From NCBI GenBank assembly GCA_023231475.1, contig JALJEE010000692.1, forward strand, positions 1-64,000: DNA of 64,000 bases. The letters run 5' to 3'. The notes below the pieces were generated by a model, which was not told the DNA's origin, did not search any database, and saw only the letters and a list, made by a program, of their open reading frames with translations. The stretch comes from Seison nebaliae (lineage: Eukaryota). The stretch's first letter is position 1, and each line of letters opens with the position of its first letter. A program made the translations under genes and the position numbers. This document shows positions 1,254 through 59,952 of this stretch, piece by piece.

Positions 1254-4200
1254 TTATTTATTTTTCTCAGAAAAATGTTTGTCCAATTCAAGTAATTGTG
1301 TTTCCAAATTTTGTAAAAAATATCCTAGAACATTCCTTTCATATAAGGAAAGTGCGTTGCATTGCAACTTCGCCGTATTCTTAGAAGGTTGCAATCGAAT
1401 ACCTTGTCCAATACCCAATGCATTCCTTAAACTTGTCGTTTTAATTTTATGTAAAGAAAGCCACATAAAATAATTCTAACTTTAAACTCACATTATTTTT
1501 GTCTTCAACATTTATATATTTCTGTAATATCTTTTTCGTAATATCGACGATTAATTGCGCAACCGTATCATTTTTTTTGTCTGAATTTGGGGTAAGTGAC
1601 GAAACTGATAAGAATGAACTATCCGTTTTATTTAGTAAATATATATTGCTAGAAGAATTTAATTTTAATTAACTTTAATTTAAAGTAAAAGACAAACGTA
1701 GATTTGGATAATTTTTCTTTGATGTTCGTCTCGTCTACTTCGTTCGATTCTTCCGTTCCAGCATCATGATGAAAGAAATTTTGACAAAGAGGATTGTACC
1801 TTTGGAAGACATGATGAGAGATATTATGAAATGAATGATATTAACATATCTTTCCAAATATCTGAAATTTTACATGACAAATCTCTGTTATGTGATTCCA
1901 AAGATGACACCGTCCTCAATTTCCAATTAGGAATAACATTGTGTAATTCCTTTAATAAAAATAAAGAATTATAAATGTTGAGGAAACAGAAGATGAAACA
2001 TATTGATTCGCCAGTTCATATTCTCCATTCAACATTTTCATAATATTTGGCTGAACATCAAATCGTTCTGAGGTAAATAATGAAGGAAATTCACTCGAAT
2101 GTCCGGCTACTCCCACCTAAACAATATAAGAATAACATCATATAAGAATAAGGAAATTAAAAGAAACATCAAATTTAATTGGATCAATTTCTGGAAATGA
2201 ATTAAAAATTCCGATCAGTTTCTTCGATGCATTGAATTTCGGGGCAAGATCCACAATTAGAGGATTATCCTTCTTTCCAGTTGTTTCGTCATCAGTAACT
2301 TCGGATTTTCGAAATTGCTGGTCGATTTTTGACATTTGTGGATCATCGATTTTCACGGAATATTCTATAAAAACTGTATTGATCTCTTCTTTCTCGTATG
2401 TCATGGTTGCTGCTTCATAAGGTGCCGTTGTTGGTAAGAGGAAACCTTGTTCGGCATCTCGAACTTCATTTGGTATTCGTGTTGCTATATGATGCATATT
2501 CTCCCCATGTGATAATTCTTTAGCCTCAAAAGGAAAAGTGGGGAAAGTTTCATGAGTAATATTATGACTATGTTGCACCATCTCAAAAGCTTGGTTAATT
2601 TGAATTTGATTGATATTTTTCGAGTTTTTAGTTCGTCTTTGTTCGAGGAAATGATATACGTCTTTACTCAAAGTAGCAGACGCACTGTGTTGTTTTGGTT
2701 TTTGTAAATAATCTGCTAAATCTTCTTGAAATTTTTTGAAAGAGTTTATTAAGTTCTGTATTTTCAGTCTTATCAATACCTAAAAATTAAATTTTTAAAG
2801 AGTCTTAATTAGGAATCATGTCCAACTATTTTAACTGCTCGACGAAACCGTTCTAATACTTCAACTCTTCTTTTAAAATAATAATCTGTTTGTTCTATAT
2901 CAAAATATGGATTAATCATATTTTGTTCTATCTACAACAATTTGGATAATTAGAAAGAAGAAGTTAGATATTGTACTTGTGTATCATCAATAATCGGTTT
3001 CGAAAATGTATTATTTCTATCGTCAACGTTAATACTCTCACGTTTTTGTAACAACGAACTCCTACGATTGTCGTCAATTAAATCATCACCATATTGAATC
3101 TATAATCGGAAGAGAAATTTCAATAATCTTCTTTACACAAAACAACCAACAGATGCACTTGCATGTAATTTTGTTTCTAAAGTTTTCTGTTTTTTTACAT
3201 TTCTTAAAAATTCCATTTCCTTTAAAGATAAATTGTATAACATAAGAAAATGAAAAGAGACTGGTTGTTTCAGATCAGTAGCATTGTGAGCAAGTTTCTC
3301 ATAAGTTTTTGCATAATCCTTAAAATTAGCAACCATCAATTTCCGTGCATCTCCGATAATTGCTTTCTAGTAATTACGAACAAATTAAATTTTTCGAGAG
3401 ATAAATTAACTTCATTCATCAAATTCGGTAACGGACAATAGACTTGTTTACCCATTTCCTGAGTCCGTTTCAACGATTTCACTTTTTTCTTAAGTATTAT
3501 TAACTTCTGTTCTTTTTCTGTTATTTCCATATCGAATTTTCTAGTTTCTCGACTAAATTCCCACATCAATTAAATAAGACGAAGAAAAAGATGAAATTAA
3601 CTCCGTCTCATCTGGATAACAGCGTCCTGCCAACGTGCAATAAAATTCATCTTGAATTCGATCGCTAAACGTCAATTTGAAAACGAGTACACATGTCGAA
3701 AATGTTCTTGGATGATAACCGGTTCTTATAGTCAAACTATCACCTGGTTCGACAGTACCTAATCAATTCATCAATTAATATTATTTAATTCATATTTCAA
3801 ATAACCAGCTAGTGGACTGACAGATATATCGGCTGACGGTTGAATAATTGTAATAGAAAAATCATAATCATTTGGACAGGTTCTTTTAACTTTGAAATAT
3901 TTTACTGATCTAATTTAATGAGAAATAAATCAAGAAAGAATAATAAGTACGAACTCGTCACCTAATGCGGTGTGAGGGAATGTATATCTCTTAGGGATGT
4001 TATCGATTGATAAATGTGTTTGGGCGATGAGAGGTATAGCGAAATTTTTTTCTTCCTAATAACTTTCTATATTAAGCAATTAATCTAAATTAAAAGGGAA
4101 ACTTCGGTATGAATTAAAATTCGATCAGTATATCCTTCCCAAGACGTTGGTAAATATTTCACTTGAATACTTAATGTTGAACCTCGCCATAACAATCCAG

Positions 4201-4535
4201 TTTTTTTATAACTAATTTTAAATTTATCGCCAACCGGCTCTATGATATGGAAATGGGCAACAGCTGCTCCTGTGTTTCGAATTACAACATTCTGTACCAT
4301 CATCACATTCAATTTTTCGATATTAAAATATAGACTACTCGGTTCGGCATAAATTGGAAATGATTCATTGCTCTCTAAATTGAAGATTTCTTTCAATTTG
4401 TTATTATTAAATGTTATTCAATTATCGTTCAACAAAATATAAACTTGTTGATAATAAATGATTTGGAACGTTAAGTCTTTCTGGATCACCTACTAGAGGA
4501 TCACCTAATTTATAAGGTGGAAGTGAGACATCCAT
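1254..4535 (-). CDS. CFAP221: Cilia- and flagella-associated protein 221 (PCDP1)-like, about 15 short introns
   Basis: The spliced N-terminus MDVSLPPYKLGDPLVGDPERLNVPNHLLST-KIFNLESNESFPIYAEPSSLYF resembles the CFAP221 VPNHLLES motif, followed by an ASH/PapD-like region. A later RFRRAVKI-VLIRLK matches the IQ-like RFQQAARKVIIR. Exons join in frame across 42-55 nt introns (first intron 4390-4444). The 3' exons are less certain. Confidence 0.75.
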
Positions 4536-5048
4536 TTCAGATCATGAACTGAAGTGAAAATATTGAGCTAAATTAAAAGTGAAGTTGTGTTATTTTAATA
4601 ACTGATCTTCGTTCCCTTGGTAACTGGCAGTGAGCCACTAAATTAATTTTAAAAGTATTTTCAATCATGTTTTTCCTGATATTCCTTTCTTTCAATTGTT
4701 TTGGATGAATAATCGACAAAATAATAGAAGGAGAATATGAATGATCAAAGTCCAAAGCTCAATATTCATTGATAATGAACGAGAATACGCAAGAATGAAT
4801 ATATTTCTTCAAAATTCCCTCAAATTTTGAATTTATTTTAATTGATAATATGGAGTGACATTTCGGTGGAATGTTTAAAATATAATAGGAAAGATCATTC
4901 GATAATAATAAGTAAGACTACTAATATATGAGAAAAAATGTTTTGAGAATTTTGAGGATTCTTTATTTTTTCAAGAGCAAAAGATAATTTCCAAAGAAGA
5001 AAAACACATTTTTTAGGAAGAACATTAAGAAGGGAAATTTTTCAAATA

Positions 5049-8000
5049 ATGTTCACGGCAATTTTCAAGAACTATTGTAATTTGAGCACGCAGCATCCGT
5101 GGGAGATTATGATTGGCAGTTTGGCTATTACGCTTGGATTGATAACCACACTGTTTTTTGGTGATACAAGTCGAATCTGCAATTATAATTTAGAATGTGA
5201 ATCTGTTTATTTTCTTTTTGAGAAAAAAAATATTGAACAATTTTCATTGTGATTTTAGGATATGAAAATATCAGACACATTCATTCTGGCTATTGTCAAA
5301 TGTCTTCTTTTATCTTATATTTACATTCAGTTTCAACGACTAAAAAAAATTGGTTCAAAATATTTAATTGGTTCTTTTTTTTTTTGAAATTTTGTTTAAA
5401 TTTAATTTTTTATATTTTTGAAGGATTTGTCATTCTTTTCTCCTTAATGTCCAGTATCGTGTTCAGTGTAGCAATGATGTCGCTGGTAGATAGAGAATTG
5501 AAAGGAATTCAGTTTAGTGAAATTGTTCTCGTGAAAAATTTCATTGAATTCTTATTTTTAGAGAAGTTCTTCCATTCTTCGTATTAGTCATCGATCTAAC
5601 AGCTGCCTGTAAATTGACGTCGAGAGCTTTTGCTTGTCGATCTCAACATGAAATTCGACGATGTATTTCGAAACATTTAATGAGATATGGACCAACCGTT
5701 CTCTTCGATACAATGACAGCAATCTCTCTAATTGGCATTGGAACTTTGTCGGGAATTTATCATTTGGAAGTGATGTGTTGTTTTGGTTGTTTGACGGTGA
5801 TGGCGAATTATATTTCTTTCATGACATTTTTCCCCGCTTCACTCATTCTAATATTTGAAACTAATTTTTTCTTCGAATGGAAAAACAAGACTATGACAAA
5901 ACAAGAAATGAAAACGACAAATGTCGTATTCACAACATCATCATCGGAAGAAGAAGATTATGATGAGGAGAATAAGGAAAAATATTGTAAATTGGAAGTG
6001 AAGAAAGATGATAAGATGAATGAAGTCATCAAACGAATCAAATATATGTTAATTACAGTAACATCAATATTGTATTTATATAAGAATTTATTGTCGAATG
6101 TGAATATTAAAGAAGAGAACCATTCAAATTATAAAACGATTGAACCGAAAACATCTATTACTGTCTTTTATTTCACTCAATTACTTCATCCAAATGTCGA
6201 TCAATGTTTCGCTTATCTTTTCGGTTTATTTCTCATTTTTTCTTATATCTTCTTCGATGAACCTGCAACTAACAACAACAACAATAATAATAATAATGTA
6301 AATGAAACTAATTTAATTTTGGAAGAAAATAAATTGAAATTATCAAGGGATTCATCTGTCACCGAACCAATAATTGTTCGTGCTGAGAAATTCTTTAATG
6401 AAGCTTCCACTCAAACGGAAATTCTAACACGATCCATATTAAAAGTGAGTAGTTTCGCTTCGACAAGTGCTCAGAGTGAAGATGATGAAAAACCGAGAAA
6501 CCGAAACAAACCATGCTTCATAATCGGATCTGATTCAGAGGATCGTGATTCTCTTAATTCTGATGATGCTTGTTCCCGAACATTAACCTCCATCATTGAC
6601 GAACCGCTTAAACAAATGAGAACAACTAATTTAGAAGTTATACCAAATACCATAACAGAATTGACATCATCTCTTTTACATAAACCGGACGACATAAAAA
6701 AAGAGAAGAAAGAAGTGCCGAAACATATTGAAAATCGTGATTTTGAAACATGTTCGAAAATCTTTCGAGAACGGAATGGAATTCAATTATTATCAGATAA
6801 TGAAATTGTCATGTTGACGAAGCGTGGAGTAATTAGTGTTTATAAATTAGAGAAAGTGTTGGATGATAATGTAAGAGGTATATTAATTCGTCGTCTCTTA
6901 TTGGAAGAACAATTGCAACAAAATAATAAAACAGATAAAATTACTGAATTACCATATCTTCATTATGATTATTCTTTGGTACAAGGAGCATGTTGTGAAC
7001 AAGTTATTGGTTATACACCAATACCAGTAGGACTTGCTGGACCGATTAAAATTAATGGAAATATGTTCCATATTCCAATGGCAACAACAGAAGGTTGTCT
7101 CGTCGCATCAACCAATCGAGGTTGTCGTGCTATCTCACAAAACGGTATTGGAGCCACGGCAACGGTTTATAATGAAGGAATGACGAGAGCTCCAGTTCTT
7201 CAATTCGAATCGGCACATGATGCAGCATTGGCGAAACGATGGGCAAGTAAAGATGAGAATATTACACTAATGAAGAATGCATTCGATTCAACATCTCGTT
7301 TCGCTCGACTCCAAAATATTCAAACAACAATTGCTGGTCGTTTATTATATTTACGTTTGACAGCATCAACTGGAGATGCAATGGGAATGAATATGGTGAG
7401 TAAAGGTACAGAACAAGCATTGAATTGTATGAGATTAGAATTCCCTCAAGCCAGAGTTCTTTCTCTTTCTGGTAATTTTTGTACGGACAAGAAAGCTTCA
7501 GCAATCAATTGGATTAGTGGTCGTGGAAAGTCGGTAGTAGCTGAAGTGACAATACCGGAACATATTGTACGACAAACATTGAAAACATCAGTAGAATCAT
7601 TAGTCGAATTAAATTTAAGTAAAAATCTGATTGGAAGTGCAATGGCGTCCACAGGTGTTGGTGGCTTCAATGCTCATGCCGCTAACATCGTCACTGCTAT
7701 GTACATTGCTTGTGGTCAAGATCCTGCACAAAATATCAATTCAGCTAATTGTATTACTCTAATGGAACAGAATGACAATGGTGATCTTTATATGTCGTTT
7801 AGTATTTATTTTCTTTTAATTCTTTTCAATTATTTTCATTTCAAAGTTGTACAATGCCGTCAATTGAATGTGGAACGGTAGGTGGAGGTACAGTTCTCAA
7901 ACCACAACGTGCCTGTCTCGAAATGTTAGGTGTTGCTGGAGCGAATACCGAAGAAGCTGGTAAGAATGCTAAGACGTTTGCTGAAATCGTTTGTTCGGCT

Positions 8001-8153
8001 GTCATGGCTGGAGAGTTATCTCTTCTATCTGCCTTAACTACTGGCGATTTGGTGAAGTCGCATATGAAACACAATCGATCACGTGTCAATATGTTGGCAA
8101 TGGATCCATCCACAACAAAAAGTTGTGTTTCTATGATGAAACATACGAGATGA
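5049..8153 (+). CDS. HMGCR: 3-hydroxy-3-methylglutaryl-CoA reductase (class I, with sterol-sensing membrane domain), about 965 aa, 4 introns
   Basis: Motifs [65 protein letters not shown] and [11 protein letters not shown]. Introns 5205-5258, 5371-5423, 5512-5561 and 7797-7846 restore one frame of 2898 nt. Confidence 0.97.
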
Positions 8154-8545: not shown

Positions 8546-9310
8546 ATGTTTTTTTATTGCATATTATTGATTCTTTCGTTAATATCACTTATCAATTGTG
8601 CCATCAATGTTCCATGTCCATCAAAAACACCAATTCATTGCTTCTGTTTCATCAATGTTCTCCCCAATAATCAGACAATTTACAATGTCAATTGTGCGAA
8701 AAATAAATATAAATATGTTCCACCTTTAAATGAAGCTTTTCGTCACGTATTCATATTTCATCTCAATCTTGGGTCAAATCAAATTAGAAATATTTCCAAA
8801 AATACTTTCCATTCTGTTAGAGTTTCATATTAAAATTAATTATCGACATTCATTCAATTTTTACAGATGATCATTCATAAATTGAATTTATCGAAAAATA
8901 ATTTGGAGTATCTTCATCCACAAAGTTTTGTTGCTTTGCTCATGGTGAAAGATATCGATCTGACATCGAACCAAAAACTAACAACAATACCTAATGCGTT
9001 ACATGCCTTAACAAATCTAACGGTTATTCGCATTTCCGGTAAGATTAAATGTGGCTGCAAGAACTTAGGTTGGATGAAAACTATGAGGAATCTCCATCGA
9101 ATTATAGTGATGGATGAAGATAATTGTTCCAATTACTGTTCTGATATCCGTGCAAATATCACTACTACTCAATATTTGAGAAGTAAAGCTATTATGAGAT
9201 GTCCATCAACATTTAACTTTTTAAATAAATCTTCTCATCTTCACTTCTCATCATATATTTTTTATTCAATTCCATTTTTCTTCATTTTTCCATTTAATTC
9301 TCATGAATGA
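8546..9310 (+). CDS. Small leucine-rich-repeat cell-surface protein (signal peptide, LRRNT, LRRs, LRRCT, hydrophobic or GPI-like tail)
   Basis: Hydrophobic N-terminus, CPSKTPIHCFC cap, repeats LNLGSNQI, LNLSKNNL and IDLTSNQKL, IKCGCKNLGW LRRCT. One phase-0 intron ends at 8866 (donor 8816 or 8822, both GTT). Confidence 0.8.
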
Positions 9311-10210: not shown

Positions 10211-10234
10211 GAGAGAGAGAGAGAGAAAGAGAGA
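10211..10234. repeat. (GA)n microsatellite
   Basis: gagagagagagagagaaagagaga, downstream of RhoA. A (TG)n run lies near 10515-10529. Confidence 0.8.
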
Positions 10235-10780: not shown

Positions 10781-11473
<693 letters not shown>

Positions 11474-11878: not shown

Positions 11879-11898
11879 CTATATATATATATATATAT
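11879..11898. repeat. (TA)n microsatellite
   Basis: Run of about 9-10 TA units upstream of RhoA. Confidence 0.8.
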
Positions 11899-15124: not shown

Positions 15125-18100
15125 TTAGTCGATTTGAGACTTTTGAGTAGTAGGAGCATTTGTGAAACTCTTTCCCTGAACAATACAATCGCTGCTGCTG
15201 ATGCTGCTGTTGGAAAGAGATTGACGAACATTTGGATTATCGGCAGTTACTGCGCCTACGTTCACACTGTCTACCACACTATTATCATGTCGATCAACAT
15301 TTAGTTGATTAGAGAATCTTCTTCTCATTCTTCTCACGTTGGCCATGGCTTGCGCAACAGCTTTATTTCTTTTCGACTCATTTCTTTCTCGATCGCCTCG
15401 TTCCTTCTCTTTAGGCAAATGCGGATTGGATTGTCTTACCAATTGTGCACGGATTACTTCGAATTGGGAATAAATTCTCGCCAATTCTCTCTAAAAATGG
15501 AACGTAAAATTTTAAAATTCAATTGAAAATATTAAACCAAAAATTCTTCTGGTTTCATATTTTTTACATTATTCTCTCCGTCCACATATCCGTTAACTTC
15601 ACCAAATAACTTTTCTGTAATTTCGTTGCCCATCTCACTGAATGATGTCATACGATGCTTGGCATCTTCTGACCAGCATTTCCTCACGATAAACCACATC
15701 TTCAAGAAAAGGTTAAATATTAGACTATTAATAAATGTGAACTTTTGATCCGAATAACAAACATAAAATTGAAGTTACCCGAAATTGGACATGAACAAAA
15801 TTGATGATTAAAGTAATATTCGGATGGATCGTTGATGTTACCAGAAAACTGAAAGAGATTAAACGTTTAAACATCACGAAAAATAATGATAACTTTGATA
15901 CAGCTACTATATTGGAAAAGAATACATCGATTATTAAGAGAATTTGAATATGACGTCGTTCATTGGGCCAAATTCTCTCTTGTGGTGCACTTCTCGTACA
16001 ATAAAGAAAGTAGAATCCAACAGCTTCCATTACCATCTCATCTGTTCAGAAAAATATTGCCAATGTATTGAAGGAAAATGAAAACTAGACAAAAATTAAC
16101 AGATATGAAGGACAATAGCCCAAGAACCCGTTCGACAAATAAAAAAATTGAATGCCGTTTTCCATTCGGTACCAAAATCCAAAAGAATTTTTGATCTTCT
16201 TGGCCAAGTTGTCCAAAATTTATCGTAATTCGGTGAATCATTTAACGGATGGAGATAAATGTCAATTGTAATTGCACTCCAAGCTGTCATATAACCGCAG
16301 ACGCCTAAGAGTATCACAGATAATGTTCGAATAATATCCTTATCTTTCAACCAGACACGATGTGCACGCCTTGATTGAAATTCAGAGATTAATCTTGAAA
16401 AATCATGCGAAATTAGAATAAAATTAGTTTAACAATAAATTAACTTGTACAATTTTAAGATGAATGTACCAAAAATTAAAGTAAAACCAATTTCACGTAA
16501 CCATGGTAACAGGAAGCAAATATAATCATTGGGATCGAAATGTCTCAAAATTAATTCGGTATAGAGGAATAGACATCCGAATAAAATTATTTCGAGCAAT
16601 GTCCACATAGAATTGCGGATGACGACATGTCGTCGAAACAGGAATACACAGAGGATTAATAGCAAATTTAATAATATACAAAATATTGTCCATATCAGCA
16701 ATGGTACAATTAGTGGTGGATGCATTCGGATTGGGTATTGTTGATTGATTTTCTCATTATAAATTACACAACTATTCTGCCATAATAATTCAGTTTGTTC
16801 ACCTGCTTCTAACGGCACATATTTCCTCAATAACTCTGATCGATGTTTGTCAAATATAATTTTATTGCAAACTTCACATTTGAAATTTGGAGAATTTTTA
16901 TGACAACTTGATAAATCATTAATTCCCGTAACACAGTCAAAGAAAACCTTTTCCAATCGTTCACCAAGATATTGTGTTCGAGTCACAATCGAATCATCTT
17001 TCAATAAAATACGACTCTTTGAGGAAGTGGAGGAGAATTTTTCATAATCAGCTTCTGCATTTTTTGCGTTGAGTGCAAAGAAACCTGGTCGGCACACACA
17101 ATTGTACCCGCCAAGTTTGAAGCCGAAACCCTTTTGAAAACGACAACTCATTGTCACATTATCACATTGATTGGTTTGATAAAAGAAATTACTACTATCA
17201 TTCGTACATTGATTTATGTCGATGTTCATTAAATCGATATCAATAATTATGACTCCCAATAATTGTATTTCTGAAGTGGAACTCGATTTTTTCCTGTAGA
17301 ACGGTATCACTGCGTTAGACATGAAATATCTTAATCGACTGCTCATTGTATCTTTTCTCAAGAAATTTTTATCGGTTTTTATTTCTCGATATTTCGATGA
17401 ACAAACTGTTTTTGGCAACGTCCAAATAATATTTGATGGTGATGTCTCAACAATAAAATCCCCAATAATATTTCTGCGATAACGACGACTTTGTTCGTAG
17501 ACTTGTTGCGTGACTAATGTGGGATACCAGGAGTCTTTATGAATAGCTGCCATCTTATCATTCATTATGATTTTCTTCTTCATCGTTCGTCTCTTTTGAT
17601 TGAGTAGTTGTTTGTTAGAGAAGATGAAAGATGAAAATTCACCGTCTTCACTTACTTCGACTAAGGCGGAACGACTTTCTGTTGGTAATCTTAATTGAAC
17701 ACGAATAATACTTTCACTACTTTGGAAGATGTTGGAAGCCATTGCTAATAGAGTTTCATTATTTACAGCAATCACTTTTGAGGAATATAACTGATAAATA
17801 TTATTGAGAATATTAGCAGCTTCTAATGCCGATGTTATCGTATCAGTGGAATGATCATATGGTTGTTTTGCATTATTTCTATCAAAATATTCAATAAGAA
17901 ATCGACGAAAATCTGTCGCGGAATTCTTGTCGAAATTTTCGAACAAACTCTTCTCATCATGACAGTTTCCTTTGTGATAGTTGTGTAATTCAGCGAATAA
18001 TGCTGGAAGTTTAATGTGGCGATCCACTGACGAAGTACCATTGAATATCAAGCTGTCGGCGGTCAATGAACCACATAACGAAATCAGACATTGAGATGTC

Positions 18101-18132
18101 AATATAAGAAATATTAAATATTTCGTGAACAT
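15125..18132 (-). CDS. GPR158/GPR179-like class C orphan GPCR, 5 introns
   Basis: Signal peptide, Cache-like ectodomain, DINQC...CRFQKGFGFKLGGYNCVCRPGF, and a 7TM region with LLEIILFG and PWLREIGFTLIFGTFILKLY. C-terminal PEEFL-RELARIYSQFE. Introns 16394-16444, 16042-16100, 15849-15893, 15700-15742 and 15491-15537. Confidence 0.88.
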
Positions 18133-27544: not shown

Positions 27545-27708
27545 CAAATGCCAACTAAAATTAAAATATAATATCTTCAATTTTTTTTGAAATTAAAATC
27601 TTCATTATAATATTTAACTGATTATTTAAAAAAAAAACTCAAATAAAAGTAGAAACATAAAAAGAAAAAATTATCGGGAAAATTCTCAAATAGACAATTT
27701 TGATAAAT

Positions 27709-32900: not shown

Positions 32901-33040
32901 TTCTTTTTCTTTATCAATTCCATGATTGACAACAAATGATCGATTTCAGAGAGCGAATGGGAGAATTCCTCATTATCGTTACAGGATGTTTGTGAAAGTC
33001 GAAGAATTTCATGTTGGAGAAAGTCGAACAATTTTTTCAT
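29954..33040 (-). CDS. ANAPC2: Anaphase-promoting complex subunit 2 (cullin-like), divergent, 6 introns
   Basis: YLRHRSDTVQCIV, DLVNILISIYNNKNTFVNEY, LKKKFGDTHMLNCSVMLDDLANSQR, LSGHFWP, RTLLW and the winged-helix LWSYLRG match APC2. Introns 31520-31563, 31361-31414, 31176-31225, 30570-30617, 30374-30423 and 30197-30244. Confidence 0.85.
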
Positions 33041-36200: not shown

Positions 36201-38030
36201 GAGAAACAGGAAAAGCTGGTGATGGAATTGGATGCAACCATGAGGGATTCGACCATAAAAAATCGAGATACGTCCACAAATCAGGAAAGTCTCATTCAAC
36301 AAAAATCCATAGCAAGAGAAAGAACTTTGAAAATTCAAAAAGTGTTAAAAGATCAAGTAAATGAGCAACGGATATTGTTAAATCAAATGAAAGTGAAGAA
36401 GAAACAAAATGAGCGAAAATTAGCGAATGAATTGAGTGAGAAGAATAGATTATTAGAGTTAATAAAAAAAGCTGAAGCTGAAAATAAGACGATATTAAGG
36501 AAATCATTGAAAGAACAAGAAATGACTCATGCAAAGATGGTTCAGAAATATGAGGAGAAGAATGATCTTAGACAAAGCATATTAACGAATGAAAAACAAA
36601 ATCTTCAAGAAAAACTTGAGAAAATTGAAAATGAATTAGAGAAGCAGCGTGAATTGTTCGAGGAAGCTTTATTAACGAAACAGAATGAATTGTTAAATCA
36701 GCAATATAACATGTTAGAGTTCATGAAACAAAAAGGAATTAAACAGCCACCATCAGATACTTATAATTTAAGTGAATTGAAAAGTTATGAGAAATTTTCA
36801 ACCGAAAATGTTTCAGAGAAAATTGGCCCTTCAGTGAAAATGAAAAGTTTTGAAGAAGAACAAAATGCAAACGATGCTGATGACGAACTTAAAAAAATAA
36901 CCGATTCTAGTGCTATCGAAACTGATTCGTCTCAACCGCTGAATAACGAAATTAGAGAGGCACTTCGAAAAACATTAGCCAGTCAGGGGTCATTGAAAGA
37001 TTATGATGAAACAGGCAATTCTTATGCCGAAAAGTTTTTCGAACTTCAAGGAAAGGAAGATGATATATCGACTGAAAACGAATCAAGGAAATCTGTCATC
37101 AGTAAAATTGCTCAGTCTCAAAGTCGCACAGCGGTAAGTACAGTTAAGGATAAATCGGTAGAAGAAACTTTCATTAAAACGTTGAATGACTCCTCTTATT
37201 ACCATGGGTCCGATACGAATAATAATAGTGTCGAAAAAGTACCTAGTAAACACATCTCCAAATCAGTATCAGATGTAAGTATAATCAGTTCCACTACCCA
37301 TAGATTTGCAAATAAGAATGCTTCGAACGATTTAGGTGAATGTAAAAACCGAAACAACTATATAAATAATTCAAATCGAAAAGAATCATCAAAAAAATCA
37401 ATTAGACAAGACCATATTGCACAAGAAAGTCATACCACTTCGGAGAATCAAGTTTCAAGTGTTCAAGAATATGAAATAAGAAAAGATAAGACATTGCAAG
37501 AGGATTTATTGAAACAATATGAGTTCGGCTATGGTCATTCAATTATAAAAGACCATACTCCTCCTAATACGAATATTAGAAAAATGAAATCTATTTATTT
37601 AGATTCCCAGAGTAACGTAATTACTAAAACAGAATTCATGGAAAATAGAAGAAGGTCCAAGAGAAGGCGAAACAGGAAAAAACTGATATATGCAAATTCA
37701 AAGTCCGATGACTTGAATTCATCCGAATCATCCATAAGAAATGCTACCTCACAAATTCCTCAATCTATAAAGAACATTTTACGAGAAGGGAAACAATTAC
37801 AACATAAAAATTCACTTAATACAAATATGCCATTTAACAGTAATATGAAAGAATATAGAAAAGATATTCAATCTAGCAATAATGCTGCTTCCGACCAAAC
37901 AAGTTATATGTTAAAGTCATGTAGTTCGATAGATTCCGAAGCTAAACCCAACAGTCAATCTCCATATCATTCTCGTCACAAATTTCCAATATGCAACAAA
38001 AAATGGACAAATGAAGAAAAAGAACTGTGA
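33203..38030 (+). CDS. Highly divergent SLC7/cationic amino acid transporter (APC fold)-like protein with long coiled-coil/disordered C-terminal tail, paralog A
   Basis: Exons 33203-33314, 33379-33549 and 33595-38030. About 14 TM segments. FAGSTSVVSLLIAG resembles CAT AGPAVVISFLIA; YDYLPALIII..SG.K, MDGLL and TPLFALSANIILL (like the CAT C-terminal hairpin) also fit. The tail is K/E/Q-rich heptads. Confidence 0.7.
35721..35780 (+). repeat. Coding tandem repeats (GAATCA)x3 + (GAAGAAGTA)x4 encoding ESESES-EEVEEVEEVEEV
   Basis: Read directly from sequence. Confidence 0.9.
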
Positions 38031-40835: not shown

Positions 40836-43800
40836 TTAATAATCATCGTTTAAATTTCTGTGTATGATATCTTCTGCAAAACTTGCAGATGATGTTGGTT
40901 GTTGTAGACTATCCAACTCATCTATTGGATTATTGGCGTTATATTCCACTAAACTATCATTTGAGTAATTGCTCTTAGGAAAAACTTGTTCGATATAATA
41001 CCCGGATTTATTTTCATTAAACGGTCTTGCCGTAAAAGTTGATCTTTTACGAGAAGGACGAGTATGTTTTTCGTTGTCCATCATGTTTTTTAACGATAAT
41101 TTATGAATACTACCAGATTGTGCACTTTTAATTGGAAAGTCATTAGAAAAATCTGATTCATTTTTCTTGCTTTTCGGGTATGATGGACGGTTGGCATGGG
41201 GAAAATTATTAGCTACAAAATTAAATTGAGTCGATTGTCCTTGACTGCTAACCATTGATGATGATTGATCATTTTTAGTATCATTTTGGAATGATCCATT
41301 ATTCAGAGGAACATGTCGGTTTTGATTATCAAATGACTGGATATTGCTTGATGAATATTTTCCTTCGTTTCGAGATGGAGCATTCATAAAATCTAAGTCT
41401 GATAATGTCTTGGATGTGTCTTGACTAAAATTCGGATCGTTTTTATTTGAATGATATGAAGATACGTTGTGTAAAGTACTTGCTGAATTCTCGAAATGAA
41501 CAGGAGAGTTTTCGAAATTTTTACTTAAACTTTTTTTTATAGCGTACTTATTATCGGTAGTGTGGTGAGTTAAACTCTTGGATATTTCGTACTTTTTTAA
41601 AGAATTTCGAGGAATTCTTATTGTCTTTCGTCGTGGATGTCCATCAAAGTTGGATTTCCGAGAATTATCATAAATTTCATAGAATTTTTCATAATTCATA
41701 TAACCGTCATAATGTTTTATATGATCCATTAGTCTTGCTGTTAATGTCGCTTCAATTTTTTCTTGAATTTCGGCTGCAAGAACTTCTTCAATTGATTCGT
41801 CTGGAATTGTTAGTTCTTCAGCGTATCTTGGTAATAGTTGAGTTCGAGCTTTTCGTGAATATCCATTTGATGTGTCATATCTTCCATTTAGTTTGGTATT
41901 ATAAATAGTTTCTATGGATTTATTTGAATTTTCAGAACTTCTTTGAATAGAACGTTCGTTCGTCATCTGACCATCTTCGTTCAAATAATCATCTTTTATA
42001 GATTTCAAGTTCGGTCTTTTTTTAGAATAAAAATTTGAATTAGACGACTCAGGATTAGTTTTTTGTCCACTTACATATGTCAACAACTTCTCTTGTTTTT
42101 CCAGAAGTTCATTCTGTTTTCGGATAAGTGTTTCCTCATACAACGATCGCTGTTTTTCTAATTCTTTTTCAACTTTTATCAATTTCTCTTCCATTGCTAA
42201 TTTGTCATTTGTTAATGATCTTTTATTATTCGTTTGATATTCTGATTGAATATAATTGGTAGTAGTACTTTCGGTTTGCTGTGTCTTCTCCGTTCCGTAT
42301 TGACTACGCATTAATTTCAATTCTCGTTCCTTCTCATATAATTCCGTTGTTAATTCTTCTTCTTTCAATTTCATTTTCGTTTTCATATAACTTAACACTG
42401 TTTTCTGTTCTCGTTCTTGTTGATCTAATAATTTCTTTAATTGAATTATCTTTTTACCTCCAGATTCTCTTTTCAAATATTCCAATTTATCTAAATCTCC
42501 TTCTTCCATTTTATAATCATTCTCCGATTGTAATTGTTTGATAAGAACATATTGTTGATCTTTTTGTTCACTGATCAAATCACCGATGATATATCTATCT
42601 TTTTCTTGTAGCTCCTTCACCATTATCAATTTATTCAAAGCCTTTTCATTCGATTGAATACTTTTCAATTTCTTACTGATTTTCTTTTTTAAAGAGTTTC
42701 GTGTCGCACTTATAACATTCGTATAATGTGGAGTTATATATGGAACTACATTAACTTTACCTACATTTTCAGTTTGTATACTAACAACTTCGTTCGATTG
42801 ATGTGTAATAACATCCGGTATCGAATATTTCAATTCTAATTCAGATTTGATACTTTCTTTTTGAACTTCGATTTCGGAAAATTGTCGAGTTCTCCTCTGA
42901 TATGAACTAACATTATAATCGGCAGATTCTCCACCAGCTACCTCAGACATAGTGTTGAACGATTTACTTGTCTTATTAGGAATTTTCGGTTTCTCTATGA
43001 TCGATTCTTTCTTTGGTTTTTTCAATTTTTCTGGTGACTTAATTTGTTGTCGAGATACTCTTTTAAATACTTCGGACATTAATCTACCAATTTCTTCAAT
43101 TAAATTATTCGAATGATCTCCCCAATAATCATTGTTCTCTAATAATAAATCGGCATTTATCTCTTGAATGAAGGGAGCAGTTAACATCAAATATGAGATA
43201 ATAGTTGAGCCGAATAATATTGGAAGAATTAGTAGGAGTTCTGCACTCAGAAAAGCGAGAAGCATCATTTGAAATGTTAAAGCGAACATCGGTGTTATGA
43301 TAACAAACATTGGATTTATAAGAATAATATTTGCTGTTGAACATTGATTTGTAATGAATGGGAGAGTGCAACAAATACAAATCAATCCCAATACGGCTAT
43401 AAATGCTACCATACCATATTTTGTTGTAATATCGTATAATAAATAACCGTATCTAAAAGCGAGGAATACGGTAACAGAATATGTCAAAAGGAAAAATAGA
43501 AGAAGAATTTGTCTCCCACCAAAATGACATTTAAGTTGAGGCATTGAATAATCACTTGAATCCGAAGAAAAATTATGTTGATTAACGTTACCAAATGTCT
43601 TATATTTATTCTTATTCCTCCAATGATTATTCTGATAACGTTGACAAAATAATCGAAAATCATTCGTACATTTGCAACATATCGCCTCAGAATTCTCTAT
43701 CATATTATCTTTGCAATTACATTCTGTTCTATAAATATTATAATTATCATTTCTGTTTGTTTCACTTTTCTCTTCGTCTGTAACAATATTTTTCAAAATG

Positions 43801-45384
43801 TTATTATTATTATCATTTTTCTTCGAATATTCATTGTTGGAATTCTTCTTATTATTCTCAGTTTTCACCTGATTATTTTCATTCTTTTTCTGATTATCTT
43901 TAATCTTTACCTGATTACTGTCACTTTTCAACTGATTACTGGAAACTTTATTCTTCGACATTCCATCTGAAGTATCGGCTATAAAACTAGTAGAAGTATC
44001 TGATGTATTTGTCGCGTTAACACTTTTTAAATTCTTTAATTTCACATAGAGTTGATGTAATTTTGCATTCGTCATATTTTCCTTATTATTCTCTTCGTAA
44101 ATGCACGGACACTTCAAATTTGGATTGTTCATGAGTGAAGGGAACATGATTGCCGTAAAAGTGATGATTATATAAACGATTAAAATAATTAAACTTGCTG
44201 TTTCCATTAATACTTTCGGATTGATGAATGTCCCTAACAGTGCCGATACAATTGCCATAAGCGCGACCACAGGACTAGGTAGATACCATCGATCATTGAA
44301 ATCGAAAAAGATACTGGATAATAACCCTTCAACAATCAACAATTGACCAAGAAGATTCACCCAATGTAAAGTGACCAAAATGATAATCATATTCATCACA
44401 ATAGGTAACACACACCAAACGTATGGGAACTGATGGAGAGGAAAATTGAGGGTGGATGGTAAGAGTGCATACCAAATACAATGTTTAATTCTCTGACTGT
44501 AAATGATGGACAAGACAGGTAGAACATATGTCATTAAAGTGAAAATATATGAGACAATATAATTCCATTCTAGTTGTGTTGTTTGATAACGATTGAGGAG
44601 AACTAAGAATAATGGACAAGAAGCGAATGCGAATAAAAGATATAATGCACCACGAAGTACACCAAAATAGCTGTGTGATAAAGTCTCTTCTAAATGCGGA
44701 TCAATTTTCTTACGTGTCATTCTTAATAAATGTATTGAGAATGATAATAATAAAATTGAATTGCACAATGAGAGCAATGTTCGATTTATTCTTGATCCTA
44801 AATTCGATACGAGAGCTAAAGGAATAATGAATATTGCAGGTGTCGTATCGAATTCTTTCAGTATAATCTCACCACCTTTTAACATTTCACTCAATTGAAC
44901 ACCTTGTGCATAATAACTGTGATATGAAATACTCTGACCGAATATCGATACAACCACAGACAAAACTAAATTTTAGATAGAAGTTTATTCCTTCAAACAT
45001 TTAAAATTCAAACATAACAATAGCAGAAACGTACCTGAAAACGCCATAAAAGGACCATAAATTCTTCGAAGAATTTGTTGGAGGTTATAATAACCGGCAA
45101 CCATCATTTTCAAATGGAGATATGTTACACATGACGAAACTGTAACAATTCCACTTATCAATATGGATACCCATGTGAGAGGACCTTACAATAACAATTA
45201 CAAAAATCAGAAGAAACAAAAATTCACCATAATATTGCGTGATGAGCACACCCATCACCGAGTAAAAAGCAACAGTGCCAAATGGAATGAAATCGGCCGA
45301 TCTGAACATATTTCGAAAGATTCTTTTGGAGTTCAATTCGTATCCAATTGAATACTTTCGATTTGGTGAAACAACCGTTTCCAT
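40836..45384 (-). CDS. Highly divergent SLC7/CAT-like protein with coiled-coil tail, paralog B (inverted relative to A)
   Basis: Introns 45185-45227 and 44966-45013 are at the same positions and phases as in paralog A, and the middle exon has the same length (171 nt). Shared motifs PFGT.AFYS, YNLQQI, FGQSI, HC.WYA.LPSTLN, QRYQNNH and NE.ALN.L. FGVLRGALYLLFAF resembles CAT TM6. The start could be ATG 45435. Confidence 0.7.
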
Positions 45385-48825: not shown

Positions 48826-48862
48826 CTATCTAATTCTAAGGAATCTAATCATCAAATAATTC

Positions 48863-51800
48863 TCATTCGACATCAATTTGTTTTAAACTTTCAAATTTTT
48901 CCGTTCTCGTAGTTTCTCTGACTGGATTTTCTTCTATCTCTTTTTCAATTGTTATCTAAAGGGGAAAACAATTTCTAATCGTATTTAATTGGAAAAGAGA
49001 AAGATAGTAACATTATGTAGATATTTGGCGATTCTTAAATGGAATTTGAGGAGTAAAATATTATCTAAAAAATATGAAAAACAAATAAAGAAAATGAATA
49101 TAAAAAAACTTTTTCTATTAATTCTTTTGATTCGATCACAGGCAAATTTGAGGAAACCATCTGAGAGATTATATAAATAATAATCTAATTCTTCAGAAGA
49201 TAATTCTTCCAAACTTTGAATGATCGTCGTCGGTTCTACATTGACCATCAATAAACTACCGAAAATTTCTTGAAAGTTTCCGAAAAATTTTTTTCGATTC
49301 TCATCTACATAAATGACGAATTGTTTCAGTTTATGATGTGAAGATGATGTTATCAAAGCATCTTTTCCAAAGATCAAATATAAATCTGTTATTATTCTCT
49401 TCACAATTTGCATCAATTCACTTTCATCATTCGACTCCCAAAGATTAAGGGGAATATCATCGATTTCTGAAATAATTTCCCCCAAATCAATTTCATATTT
49501 AATTTCTCTTTCCAACGAACATTCACAAATTTCCAGTAATTCTTCCGAACAATTTTCTTTAATCATTTTCACATTCAATATATTTGATAATTGTCGATGA
49601 AATAAATAACGATCTAATCGTTCTACTACTTTACATCCAATTTGAAGTAGAAAATGTTTAATATGTGTGACATTTTCCGATTGGAAGCATCCTTTCATCA
49701 ATTTCATGAAATACAATATTAAAATAGATAATTTATAATCAATTATCAATTTTTCAAATAGAGTTCGAACTTTCGACACTTCAATTTCACCATTTCCCAT
49801 ACATTGAATTAAAACGGTCAATAAAAAATTGATGGTTGTTCGTTGTATTCGTATTGAATGAAATTCTTCACAATTCAATAAATTATTCAAACAAGAAAAA
49901 GTTATTTCGAATTTCTTCGTATTTTTTTCATTGTTCATCTGATTTAAATCGTTATTTGCTTCTAGAAATAATTTCGATAAGTTCATCAAATAATTATCGA
50001 TCGATTTTAATACAAGATCTCGGACAATTGTTGATACAAATGATGAATTGATCTGTTCAAAAATGATTAATGATTCCGATTCGTCAGAAGAAGATAATTT
50101 GGATAATATAAATTGAATGAAATCGGGAAAACTGTTAAAATTGTTTTGATTGAGAAATTTGGGAATTAAAAAATTGTCGTCGATTTCTCTAAAACAATTG
50201 ATGTCATCTATTTGGGGTGGATTTGATTCATAACGATCAATACCTGATTGAATTTCATTTAAAATGTCAGAAAATTCATATGGAAAATTATCGATATTAT
50301 GAGATGGTAATTCAAAAAGTTTAAATGTTGATTTGGAAGTGGAAACTTCTAATGAATCGTTAAACATCATCCAATTATTTGTACTTAGAGATTTCTCCAC
50401 AAAATTCCTTCCTCTTAATTGTTCGTCGATTAAGCGAAGAATTGCGAATATTGGTTTCTGTAATGTGAACGATCCTTGATGGAGTAATTCATCAAGCAAC
50501 TTCAAGAACTCTCGAATACTAAAAGGCAATTCACTATTCATGTCTATGAGACAACATTTGTCCAATCCCACTTCCTTAACAAATTCCACCATTAACTCCA
50601 AAACGATCAATTGTTTGCCCAATCTTTCATTTTTGAAATTGAAAAAAAAGTGACTAAAAACTTTCCATTTAACATGAGAAGGTCCAATCTTCAAAAGGAT
50701 ACTTTTCGTTTGTTCGGTAACGGTGGGAGTTATTTCGATCGCTCTCAAAAGAAATGGGACAATTGAATCAATTTCGTGATCAGTTAATTGTTCTAAATTC
50801 AATTCATGAAAATCCAGTAATTTCGACAAGAAATTGAGACAATTCAAATATTTTTCTTCATTCTTCACTTCAATACATTCTAAAGAAATAACTTTGAAAA
50901 TGACATCGGTACAAGAAGCGAGTAATTGAATATTCTTTTGTCTTTTCTTCACATCAGATTCCGTTTTAATTTCTCTTAATATGAAAATATTCAGTTTACT
51001 AATACCACAATTAACTCCTTGGGACCAGGAAAAATGTCGATTGAGAATATTTCCAAACACTAAATTCAATTGTTCTTTCAAATATGTTAAATGATTATCG
51101 GTTGGATGATGGAAATCCCATTTCATAACACCTTTCAATCTTTCACATTTATCTGTTAATTTAATTAATTCATCAGTTCCAATTGTATTTCTTTCGTTTT
51201 TCACTCGATTTAATTCTTTCAACTGTTTCTCGATTTCAAATACATCATCATCCAATTCGTTTGATATTAATGATAACGTGGGAAGTTGAGAAACATTTGC
51301 GAATGATTTTTCTTTCGTATCATATGTATCTCCTTCTCCAATTTCATCTTCTTCCAATTTAAATGATTTCTCCTTCTTTTTTAATGCACAACCATAATAA
51401 TCATTATTGTCATCATTATAATGACGAACAATTATCGTTTTCCTTCCATTATGTTTCAAAGGAGTATTATGATTCGATAAATTATTCTCTCTGAATTTTT
51501 GAGAAGTTTCCATACACATCATTGGACTGAATTCCACTTTCTTTCTTTGGGAAATTTGAACAATTTTCTTTTGGGAAATTTGAACAATTTTCTTTTGAGA
51601 ATTTTGAACAATTTTCTTTTGAGAATTTTGAATAACTTTTTTTTGAGAATTTTGAACATTTTTTTTTTGAGAATTTTGAACATTCTTTTTTTGAGATTGT
51701 TGAATGACTTTTTTTTGAGATTGTTGAATGACTTTTTTTTGGGAATTTGGAATAATTTTATTTTTCATACTTAATTCAACAATATCTTCATTCTCAGATA

Positions 51801-52620
51801 AATTGAGTGTGTTTATTCTCCTTTTTGGTGTATCAATTATAATACGAGGAATTCTTCCTTGTCGTTCAATTATTTTCTCTTGTAGTTGCTGTTGTAACTG
51901 CTTCTTCTGATCGTCAAACATAGAAATAACTGCATTCGGATTGATTTGATGGAGAACCGCAGCAAAATCGATTCCTGCAGAACGAACATTCGGATACTTT
52001 CCTTCCACAGAAAATTTGCAGAAATCGATAAGTATCGTAATATCCAATGAAATTGAATCGAATTTATCGAGGTAATGAGCAAACCACTTGACAATTTCAA
52101 AAAGAATTCTTGGATTTTTATGTTCTTTCACTTGACAAATGATATCTTTTGAGATCGTAGAGAATCCAACCGTTTGACAAATGACTTCCAATAAATCTTT
52201 AACCACTTCACTTACTTTGTTATTTCCAATCTTTCCGAGAACTTCATATGTCAACCATCGACCGTATGATAATGTTAATTTGTTCCATTCTCTTAAACGA
52301 GTCAATAAGAGGACAGTTATTTCCAATCTCTTCTTTAAAACGTTTATATTGTTATCTTTGAAACCAGGATCGACCGTAATAAATCCCAAAATATATTTGA
52401 GAGGGAAATCCTGAAAATTTTTTTCTTCATATTCTCTCAATAATTTCAGAATGACATTCTCCAGAGATTCGACAGCAGATAATCTCAATTGATATTTGGA
52501 ATTAGAAAAGTTATCAAACATTTTCTTCGGTAGTAATTCAATAGCTTTTTCTATTATCTCCGGTTCTGTCATCAATCTGTCTCGCGTCCATTTCTGAACT
52601 TTATTATGTTTCTTGAACAT
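48863..52620 (-). CDS. Divergent, N-terminally truncated XMAP215/CKAP5 (ch-TOG)-like TOG/HEAT protein
   Basis: IEKAIELLP..F..SKYQLRLSAVE, PGFKDNNINVLKKRLE, HKNPRILFEIVKW and PNVRSAGI match TOG3. MKWDFHHPTDNHLTYLKEQL matches the pre-TOG5 KWNFTTPRDEYIEQLKTQM. One 3.5-kb exon plus two small 3' exons with GTT introns; the exact 3' end is uncertain. Confidence 0.75.
51541..51744 (-). repeat. 24-bp coding minisatellite, about 8.5 copies, encoding SQKK[VNI][IV]Q[QNI]
   Basis: SQKKVIQQ x2, SQKKNVQN x2, SQKKVIQN, SQKKIVQN, SQKKIVQI x2 and SQRK in the TOG protein linker. Confidence 0.95.
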
Positions 52621-53186
52621 TTCTTTAGTGGATTTATGGAAATAGTAGAAATAATTGGAATGGGATATGACACTGATGGGAAAAACAAATATAATTGATA
52701 TTATGTGGCTGGTTAGTTATAAAAGTGATGAAATTAGAAGAAATTTTATTATTAAGAACTTTTTAAATGAACGACATTTGTAAAAGATATAATATATCAA
52801 ATTGGGAGGAAGAAAGAGAAAAAAAACAGTTTTCACCTTCCTCTGCGTTATAGACATCTTCTAATGTAAAAACTACAGAATGATCTGATTTGTCTCTTCG
52901 TTCTTCCCAACTTGCCATCCACGATATATCAATTTGTCCCATAAAATATTAAAATTCCGCCAATCCATTAATTGGCACTGAACAATTCTAATAAAACAGA
53001 TTTCATTTTTGAACTATTGAAAATCTTGGCCCTACAATTTATAGATTCGACATTCCACTTTTCACATTTGTTCACATTGTACATGTTATGTTTCGGTCGG
53101 TGGTATTATAATAATTTCTAAGTGATTCATTGATTTGTTTTCGAGGATCTTAAATTATTTTTTTATTTGATTTAAATTGTGAAGAA

Positions 53187-54044: not shown

Positions 54045-54228
54045 GAGCATCATATTCTTCATTATATCATTTCTTCTTTAAATTCTACTCATTTTTTATT
54101 CGTTATAATCTCTTTTATTTTCTGCAACAATCAACATCTGTAAATCTCTAATTGGATGATTTTGATTATTTATTATATGATAATAAAAAAGACATGGAAA
54201 AAAAATTTTTTTTTTTTCAATTTTTGAC

Positions 54229-56763: not shown

Positions 56764-56925
56764 TTTATACTTTTGTTGTTAAAGAATTAAATAAATGAAA
56801 TGCTAAAACTTTAAAATAAAGTGGTAATAAAAGGTCGTTTGAAAATATAATTTTGTTTCTTTTTTTGTTAGAATAGATTTTTAGGGAATTAGAAAGTTGT
56901 TTTGCATTCGTCGATACATTTGTGC

Positions 56926-57572: not shown

Positions 57573-58286
57573 TTTCTGTTCATTACAATTTCTTACTCTA
57601 TTTCATATGAGAGATTAAATATATTTTAATTAACTAAAATTCAAATCAGAAACGTATATGGGATTTTTTGTATTAATTAATCATTCATGATTTCAATGAT
57701 GAGAATTGATAAATTTTATTTTTGAAAAAGAAAACGAAAAAAGTTTTATGTCTTCTTCAAGAGAAAGTTTTTATACCAAAAAAATGATTGAGGTAATTGT
57801 ATATAATACATAAATATTCACAAAATAACAAAAGGTTAAAAATGAAATTGAAAAAAAATGTCAAAAAATCGAAAGAACAAAATTGTGTGAAAAGGTGAGG
57901 AAGAGGTGAAATATGGGAATGAAATTATATTTTCTTTAAATATTCTAAAATCAGAAATATAATTGGAGATCAGTAGAAATTTATATTTTTCTGGATTTTT
58001 TTTATAACTTAAACTATTTATCGGAACCGATTTTATTCATTTAAAATCGCACAACGACATGGAATTTTTTTAGGTACTATTTTATTCAATTTGGTGTTTC
58101 ATTCAATTTGAAAAGTCGAAGGAGAAGTGACGGAAAACGATGATGAATAAAGTTGATCTACGTGCTGCTTTTGTATGGTTGTCGATGAATTGGAACAATT
58201 GGATAATTCTTCTTGATATTTCTTGTAAATATTAAACGTCGTAATGTGTATGTTAAGTGTTGACGGAAGCTTTTGATAATATATAA

Positions 58287-59952
58287 CTAGAAATTCATTA
58301 AAAGTCTTCTTATCGTCAATATGACCAATAGAAAGGTTATCATATGTGTCAAAGATATTGATGATATTCCATCACCACTATTAATAATTCGACTTCCTCT
58401 TAAATAATTTTTCGAAGCATCATCTTCCATGAAATTTTTCCGTTCTCCATCTAAAAGATATCGAAAAGTTAAATTAGTTATTTATTTTAGTTATTATACT
58501 AAATAAAGACCTTGTGTAAATATCGTAATAATTTCTTCCAATGTCGATACATCATTGGTAATACTGATTTTAATATCACGTGCTTCGTTCAATTTTTTTA
58601 TAGTTAAAATAGCTTTATATCGATCATTCTCTAAATTCTATTAGAAAATACAAAGTATATACAAAGTAAATTAGACTAAATGATAAAATTAAAAATTTAA
58701 CTTGTAGCACGGTAGAATATTCATTTCTAGCATCATTGGCATTTAATAATATGTCATCAATATTCCATTGAATTATCGGTTTAGTATTGCTCTCAAATAT
58801 ACATTCCACGGGCAAATCTTCACTACCCTTTGTGGCCCAAACAGGATCGCATTTCACAACTTTAGGGGAACCTTATTAGAAGTTATTATGAAAATAGAGA
58901 AAATGAACTACGAACTTAATACTTGAATTAATCTTGAGGAGCTGATATACGTCTCTCCATCTACTGAAGCACGACATGTCATTATCTTGTTGTGATATGA
59001 TCGATCAGCGATAAATGTTTCTGGTTTCGATTTGATGACTTTGGTAAAAAGTTGAATGTGTAAAGGTCCTTGTCCCTCCGTCACAAAATTTTCAAATCCA
59101 TTATTAAAATATTTCATGACATCAGTATTGCCGATGGTCATTCTGAAGGAGATAAATTGAAATTTCAATGAACATTTCAATAGTTGAATTCTAACTGGAA
59201 TTGTGGACGAGGATAAACATCTCGGACAGAACAATTCGTTTTCATTTCTTTTCCTTCTATTAATTTCACGACGGTGTTTGTGGCGTTCGTTTCGATAAAT
59301 TGATTTTCAAACGTCAATTCAACTGATTGAATTGGAACTGATAAAATAGAAAGAAAATTATGCTTGATTTTGTTTTAAAAAAAGTTTCACACAAACTTAT
59401 TACAACAATCAATTTTTTTTGTCGAGAATTTTCATCACCACCGAAAATTTCACAAGCATACCATCCAGCATCCTCAGCTCGAACATCTGTTAATTAAGAA
59501 GAATTCAATTTAATTAATAAGTGAAATTCAAAAACTTTTTATTATCAGTATTTGATTGAACGCTTTTTCATAAAACTCTTCTCTTATATCAAATCTTCCG
59601 GTACTTTCGAAAGGCTCGAGAATTTTCTTCCCCCGATTAATATCAGTCACTTCTTCAGCTATTAATGAAATAATTTAATATAAAGAATTGATAATAATAA
59701 AAGAGTTTAACCTTTATTTCCTGGAAAATATTTTCTCCAAACTAATGCTTTGCCAAATTCTGGATTCTCATAAATACATTCCAATTCAGTTTCATCACCT
59801 TGACTCAATAGAACTTTATCACCACCAGGTCGAACTATCAATGTATTTGCTGTAACACCGGCCATAGGTGGAATAAATTCAGCATTCTCAACATCATCGG
59901 ACAATGTTGTGGCAACGGTGCAGAATAAGATGAAGAATGAAAGAAAATTCAT
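58287..59952 (-). CDS. Immunoglobulin-superfamily cell-surface protein (about 3 Ig domains, GPI-type tail; lachesin/DIP/IgLON-like architecture), 7 introns
   Basis: Signal peptide, QGDETELECIY..ALVWRK, NVRAEDAGWYACE, NCSVRDVYPRPQF, IMTCRAS, PVECIFESNTKPIIQW, and a hydrophobic C-terminus before TAG 58287. All exons join in frame across short introns. Confidence 0.8.

Follow-up and report, generated by a model that had tools for sequence, protein, structure and literature searches.

Near-fixed GTT intron donors in a genomic window of Seison nebaliae and their possible origin in a changed U1 small nuclear RNA

In a stretch of 64,000 nucleotides (nt) of the Seison nebaliae genome (contig JALJEE010000692.1, positions 1-64,000; assembly GCA_023231475.1), hereafter the window, about nine in ten of the reconstructed introns begin with GTT. 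The species, a seisonid (Rotifera, Pararotatoria), is a small relative of the rotifers and lives on crustaceans. Its genome measures ~44-46 Mb, with a GC content of about 31-32% and compact genes, and two lineages have been described within the species (PMC8351084, in excerpt). Over the HMG-CoA reductase frame at 5548-7878, identity to the deposited S. nebaliae protein SNEBB_007114 is 100%, and the deposited Seison proteins SNEBB_007119 (CHMP3), SNEBB_007117 (GPR158-like receptor), and SNEBB_007113 (Ig-domain protein; Ig, immunoglobulin) match further genes. All results refer to this single 64-kb window. The curated set comprises 53 introns, spread over 12 gene stretches that lie between 1254 and 59952:

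1254..4535, minus strand: CFAP65/HYDIN-type Ig-domain protein (SNEBB_007113); 15 introns, with GTT donors at 4444, 4102, 3954, 3805, 3601, 3410, 3150, 2826, 2167, 1999, 1845, 1697, and 1480; exceptions are the introns 2932..2976 (45 nt, GTA, CAA GTACAA) and 3220..3261 (42 nt, GTC, CCA GTCTCT), also on the minus strand.
5049..8153, plus strand: HMG-CoA reductase (HMGCR); introns 5205-5258, 5371-5423, 5512-5561, and 7797-7846, all GTT and placed by homology.
8546..9310, plus strand: leucine-rich-repeat gene; intron 8816-8866 (GTTAGA).
10781..11470, minus strand: RhoA; introns 11314-11265 (GTTTAT) and 11078-11018 (GTTAGT).
15125..18132, minus strand: GPR158-like receptor (SNEBB_007117); five donors at 16444, 16100, 15893, 15742, and 15537, all GTT, the first four fixed by homology.
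25927..27560 (start approximate), minus strand: gene without a Pfam match; introns 27464-27422 and 26387-26343, both GTT.
28993..29899, plus strand: CHMP3/Vps24 (SNEBB_007119); introns at 29029, 29142, 29287, 29418, and 29537, all GTT.
29954..33040, minus strand: ANAPC2-like gene; six introns, GTT at 31563, 31225, 30617, 30423, and 30244, and GTA at 31414 (exception intron 31361..31414, minus strand, 54 nt, CAG GTAAAA, in frame and without a stop).
33203..38030, plus strand: membrane-protein paralogue 1; introns 33315-33378 and 33550-33594, both GTT.
40836..45380 (start approximate), minus strand: membrane-protein paralogue 2; introns 45227-45185 (ATG GTGAAT, an exception) and 45013-44966 (GTTTGA).
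48836..52626 (ends approximate), minus strand: long open-reading-frame (ORF) gene without a firm Pfam match; introns 49109-49065 and 49011-48956, both GTT.
58100..59952, minus strand: secreted or membrane protein with Ig-like exons (labelled by inspection; 3' end open; its single exons gave no Pfam match); seven introns counted, GTT at 59711, 59535, 59396, 59195, 58915, and 58701, and AAG GTCTTT at 58510.

Fifteen of these introns are anchored by homology, 17 follow deposited models, and 21 were placed by a gene model in combination with reading frame and paralogue comparison. The junctions thus rest on the DNA sequence, on homology, and on deposited gene models and not on RNA, and the deposited models do not count as independent proof. 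Intron 31361..31414 is the least certain, since it was set by hand and the gene model did not call it. Excluded from the set were the transposon-like stretches 45500-48800 and 54050-55600, model introns with a low posterior or longer than 700 nt, the model intron 45094-45035, which is exonic by paralogue alignment, and a 548-nt intron of the fused deposited model SNEBB_007114. Position +3 is T in 48 of the 53 introns, A in 2, C in 2, and G in 1 (95% confidence interval for GTT 79-97%); by class of evidence, GTT opens 15/15 homology-anchored introns, 15/17 from deposited models, and 18/21 of the remainder. An earlier note on this DNA had put the share at about 90% (some 50 of some 56 introns), which the curated count bears out. 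Its named exceptions (GTA at 31414 and 2976, GTG at 45227, GTC at 58510) were all found, and GTC at 3261 joins them as a fifth.

Near-fixed GTT donors are real in this window. Only non-Seison proteins entered the homology profiles (105 CHMP3, 50 HMGCR, and 96 GPR158-like), and at each junction all nearby in-frame GT/GC..AG pairs were scored without regard to the donor. The top-scoring pair carried GTT at 5/5 CHMP3 and 4/4 HMGCR junctions, with margins of 4.6-38 bits, and at 4/5 GPR158-like junctions. At the fifth, 15537, four alternatives lie within 0.2 bit and the placement rests on the deposited model. Both RhoA junctions are GTT according to alignments with PDB entries (model posteriors 0.99-1.0; alternatives were not enumerated). 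Hence 15 of the 16 junctions that the earlier note regarded as fixed by protein conservation are indeed fixed by non-Seison homologues, while homology does not settle 15537. Removal of GT...AG restores the conserved frames at all 15 homology-anchored junctions, every one of them GTT. A spliced aligner without donor preference found the identical five CHMP3 introns. When the same aligner was applied to 22 of 48 metagenome CHMP3 loci, none of them identifiable as rotifer and many closely related to each other, only 5 of 60 GT donors were GTT, in addition to five GC calls; at one locus with 26% GC (L008), the donors are GTG, GTA, and GTA.

A self-training, two-strand gene model that knows only GT/GC and AG led to the same picture. 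Its +3T frequency was 0.65 untrained and 0.73 once acceptors and lengths were learned while donors stayed flat. After donor learning it converged on 0.90 over ~57 introns, at equal likelihood whether training began flat or with canonical GTRAGT frequencies. In spike-in runs, the +3 base at 54 confidently called donors was replaced by draws from canonical or background frequencies, and all four runs recovered the planted frequencies within 0.06. The model agrees with the SNEBB_007113 gene at 14/15 donors and prefers a GTT at 2835 over that at 2826. None of the 53 introns has a junction that can slide, and the introns are unrelated in sequence (best pairwise score 32 vs 34.6 for shuffles). Three of the five CHMP3 introns occupy positions common to CHMP3 genes of other eukaryotes. 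Because the introns share no likeness, cannot slide, and include these three shared positions, old introns have changed their donors, without a burst of one element. Hallmarks of introners are likewise lacking among the 53: the upstream exon ends in AG in only 3/53, and there is no shared sequence. The two membrane-protein paralogues are convergent and diverged, each with a multi-pass membrane N-terminal half and a long charged tail, and neither has a firm Pfam match. They have two intron positions in common, and one of these introns starts with GTT in paralogue 1 and with GTG in paralogue 2. In paralogue 2, an in-frame CAG GTACGT lies 21 nt upstream of 45013 and is exonic by paralogue alignment; TAT GTTTGA is used instead.

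The +3T excess is not a product of base composition. T follows GT with a frequency of 0.35 in intergenic DNA and 0.39 window-wide, and T makes up 0.49 of intron interiors (+3T excess p=2e-10) and 0.62 of intron positions +7..+14 (p=3e-6). AT bias offers no explanation, because A occupies +3 in only 2/50 introns with A or T where 40% would be expected (p=6e-9). The earlier note's view that +3U goes beyond AT bias and implies an altered partner in donor recognition is therefore supported. C is also under-used (2/50 pyrimidines vs 19.5% expected, p=0.0035), and with purines at +3 in only 3/53 the donors depart from GTRAGT. On the exon side, -2A is enriched (31/53, p=0.002-0.004), and position -1 (A 27, G 12, T 11, C 3) shows no G above the coding background. 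Position +4 (A 21, T 21, C 8, G 3) is at background (+4A p=0.3; purine 24/53), as is +6 (T 31, G 2). At +5 (A 25, G 13, T 9, C 6), A is most frequent, as had been noted before, yet relative to intron interiors G is the most enriched base (G 3.65x, A 1.45x, T 0.35x; purine 38/53, p=3e-6). The earlier statement that the introns mostly lack +5G thus holds as a count, but the signal is weakened and not lost (p=4e-5). The overall profile is (A)(A/G)|GTT-N-R, with 0.56 bit of information at +3, 0.44 at +5, and at most 0.1 elsewhere, spread over 29 distinct hexamers. The introns are 42-64 nt long (median 49) and U-rich in their 5' part (62%), and their acceptors are TAG in 32, AAG in 13, and CAG in 8 cases. 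No branch-point motif was enriched over shuffles in the 53 introns. U12-type introns carry the donor motif RTATCCTT, which occurs in none of the 53.

Compared with the standard U2-type consensus CAG GUAAGU (PMC9311317, in excerpt), the Seison introns retain GT-AG ends, YAG/AAG acceptors, -2A, a residual +5G, and shared positions, but differ in the rarity of +3 purines and in the absence of -1G and +4A enrichment. The closest parallel is Entamoeba, where GUUUGU(U) donors go along with a co-evolved U1 ACAAAC and a standard U6 box; in the same source, in excerpt, changed donors with changed small nuclear RNAs (snRNAs) are reported from amoebozoans, and lineages with only +4 changes keep a standard U1 (bioRxiv 10.1101/2022.06.08.495308). 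Entamoeba and Seison share near-fixed +3U, GT-AG introns, and an AT-rich genome. However, Entamoeba, an amoeba, has few introns and a rigid hexamer (88-90% GUUUGU), whereas Seison, an animal, is rich in introns and has a free +4 and a weak +5G. The fixed +4U, +5G, and +6U of the Entamoeba type are not seen in Seison, and GTTTGT occurs in 2/53. In Saccharomycotina, switches from +4A to +4U have been linked to loss of METTL16 and SNRNP27K (PMC10581693, cited after PMC11732430, in excerpt). These resemble the Seison case as a lineage-wide donor change, and METTL16 is scored missing in Seison as well (see below), but here the change is at +3 and not at +4, +4U is not enriched, and SNRNP27K is scored complete.

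Position +3 faces U1 position 6 and later U6 G44 (PMC9311317, PMC11732430), and for the canonical U1 5' end, A is the best partner at +3 (U1 sequence in PMC9311317; all in excerpt). Canonical U1 would favour A or G at this position, yet A is nearly excluded, which points to an altered partner. The best-fitting partner is A, with a gain of 0.83 hydrogen bonds over background compared to 0.17 for G, and since C is under-used at +3, A is the more likely of the two. Such an A might be supplied by a substitution at U1 position 6, by one at U6 position 44, or, in a shifted register, by A7 of U1. We tentatively favour a U1 snRNA whose 5' end carries A opposite intron +3, although we rate this explanation slightly below an even chance. 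This A would form a Watson-Crick pair with U+3 in the ordinary register, of which -2A and the enriched +5G are traces, and the change would be of the same kind as one of the two in Entamoeba U1. In a wider form, for which our confidence also stays just short of one half, the snRNA base opposite +3 (U1 position 6, U6 position 44, or both) became A in an intron-rich animal, GTR turned into GTT in old introns throughout the genome, and U6 N6-methyladenosine (m6A) was lost together with METTL16. The neutral +4 might then reflect the missing U6 m6A, and the short introns might be defined across the intron and need little further donor information; both steps are more speculative. Pairing on the exon side would let the few donors other than GTT persist; -1G is found in 3/5 of them vs 9/48 GTT donors (p=0.07).

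Several observations weigh against this explanation. A one-base change in U1 leaves the loss of -1G (12/53) and +4A (21/53) unexplained, and hydrogen-bond counts do not tell the registers apart, with z 2.6-5.3 for the canonical, the shifted, and the bulged one alike. The identical +3 pattern would result from an A at U6 position 44. The U1 change is read from the donor pattern; an Rfam scan of the window gave no matches at E<=1, and thus no snRNA gene. Cryptic GTT-type donors in 22 kb of exons did not deviate from within-gene codon shuffles (z -1.0 to +0.3). One hand-picked motif was depleted (11 vs 22), but given the null result of the systematic shuffles, exon avoidance was discarded as support. 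The METTL16 part of the scenario has difficulties of its own. In the excerpted supplement of PMC12256650, the analysis with Benchmarking Universal Single-Copy Orthologs (BUSCO) scores METTL16 as 'Missing' in Seison alone of 25 syndermatans. The same analysis misses 356/954 genes in Seison, 76 of them in Seison alone, which makes the METTL16 call weak. It also scores eIF3g as missing, although a single-exon gene at 56023-56778 (minus strand; Pfam eIF3g 4e-14 and RRM) encodes this protein. At least one of the published gene losses is thus a false negative, since eIF3 subunit G is among those that PMC12256650 gives for Seison and acanthocephalans. METTL16 loss further predicts +4U (PMC11732430, in excerpt), contrary to the 21/53 observed vs a 49% background. 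METTL16 loss would fit the lost +4A, and we take it as a lead only. As for other splicing factors in these BUSCO rows, Prp6, Prp3, Prp31, U2A', Sm D1/D2/G, SNRNP27K, and SLU7 are complete and U5-40K is missing like METTL16; U1-specific proteins were not among the rows found.

The selecting partner might instead be U6, an explanation that we consider unlikely but hold to be the first to weigh against a changed U1. Here, an unmethylated or altered ACAGAGA box would pair U+3 with G44 by wobble or with a substituted A44 while U1 pairing is relaxed, and the change in the box would also render METTL16 dispensable, in line with its BUSCO score. The contact between +3 and G44 is normally weak (PMC11732430, in excerpt), 50/53 donors are able to pair with G44, and the lack of the U1-type signals -1G and +4A, together with -2A/-1A that fit pairing with the U5 loop, suits a reduced role of U1. 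However, for an unchanged G44, C should be no worse a partner than U, in conflict with the under-use of C, and the wobble is open to every eukaryote and would not by itself be expected to fix +3U. Entamoeba keeps the standard U6 box (bioRxiv 10.1101/2022.06.08.495308, in excerpt), and +5 still favours G, as an unchanged C42 would. Pairing of U+3 with A7 of a canonical U1, in a register shifted by one base or bulged at +2, seems improbable. Roca and Krainer (2009) reportedly found such registers at atypical human donors, with a GUUAAGU pattern, and Seison donors resemble these in the GUU start (+3U 48/53), the purine at +5, and A at -1 (27/53), all of which fit the shifted partners. Such registers exist in human (PMC9311317, in excerpt). 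They are rare there, in contrast to the dominance of GTT in Seison, and they need +6G and a +4 purine. U1 C4 would face +6, where G is at or below background, +4 purines are not enriched, and the enriched G sits at +5, its unshifted place. Because +6G occurs in only 2/53, the donors do not follow the one-base-shifted GTTAAGT code, and the term 'shifted' that the earlier note had used does not apply in the sense of a register shift.

Recognition by protein with little U1 pairing, through a diverged U1-C, LUC7, PRP8, or a U-binder of the TIA-1/Nam8 type combined with intron definition, is in our estimate as improbable as a shifted register. The scant donor information beyond GTT, the U-rich 5' part of the introns, and their shortness would suit it, and TIA-1/Nam8 bind U-rich tracts downstream of donors (PMC9311317, in excerpt). 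Yet the U signal peaks at one position, falls to background at +4, and lies below it at +5, unlike what a binder of U tracts would leave. It is very improbable that the whole pattern is an artefact, be it of AT bias, of how the introns were reconstructed, or of a single intron-generating element that spread in a burst. The junctions come from DNA-based evidence, the genome has only ~31% GC, and a single window was analysed; on the other hand, donor-blind homology gave GTT at 15/15 junctions, training converged from a canonical start, and the four spike-ins were recovered. Moreover, the same aligner yields few GTT donors at CHMP3 loci of other eukaryotes, and the unrelated, non-sliding introns, three of the five in CHMP3 at shared positions, speak against a burst.

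The recoding of the major-intron donor in this animal is real and apparently undescribed. The literature search, which did not extend to subscription papers, turned up neither an account of the donors in Seison nor one of near-fixed GTT in an animal. In some AT-rich invertebrates, a sizeable minority of short introns start with GTT, and Seison may lie at the far end of a trend within its lineage. The supplements of PMC8351084 make no mention of introns, splicing, snRNA, noncoding RNA, or Rfam, and PMC11347168, PMC11347140, and PMC10125929, in excerpt, contain nothing on these donors. Few signals of animal genes are as conserved as the donor consensus, and a near-fixed +3U in an intron-rich animal means that many existing introns can be moved to a new donor code. 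As only +3 is fixed, the influences of U1, U6, and proteins can be told apart better in Seison than in Entamoeba. A gene finder that takes GTRAGT as its prior would mis-call the Seison genome: the canonical start of our model found 31 introns vs 57 after training. Such mis-calling may bear on published gene-loss counts.

The deposited SNEBB_007114 joins HMG-CoA reductase to the leucine-rich-repeat gene via a 548-nt intron (8127-8674, plus strand). This fusion is likely an annotation error, because the reductase has its own stop at 8151 and the leucine-rich-repeat frame starts with an ATG and a hydrophobic leader at 8546. Low-depth (~3-5x), diverged contigs from the sequence runs X1-X3 match the window at 15140-15220, 18224-18358, 19141-19253, and 29464-29694. 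The matched pieces are short, coding as well as non-coding, and represent a second, more GC-rich haplotype; the non-coding ones may be conserved regulatory elements. The CHMP3 contig of X2/X3 (~4-5x, diverged) aligns 9 nt into intron 29537 and implies an intron of ~43 nt there; 4 of its 11 differences from the window are not listed, so that the base at +3 is not readable. Compared with window positions 1-20000, X1 and X2 contain DNA-like contigs without intron-sized joints, and X6 and X7 gave no match, all of which is neutral with respect to the junctions. The remaining features of the window are:

27712-28173, minus strand: Med22, single exon.
45986-47433, plus strand: broken transposase-like frames with a Cys/His motif, stops, and frameshifts; no Pfam match.
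47940-48790 and 54930-55520: two related, decayed reverse-transcriptase-like 3' ends (labelled by inspection) with an identical AATAAT-rich tail.
51485-51764: tandem repeat of ~24 nt inside the long ORF 48988-52716, where two more minus-strand frames are open.
53154-54008: kinase-like frame with upstream stops, between the two reverse-transcriptase-like copies.

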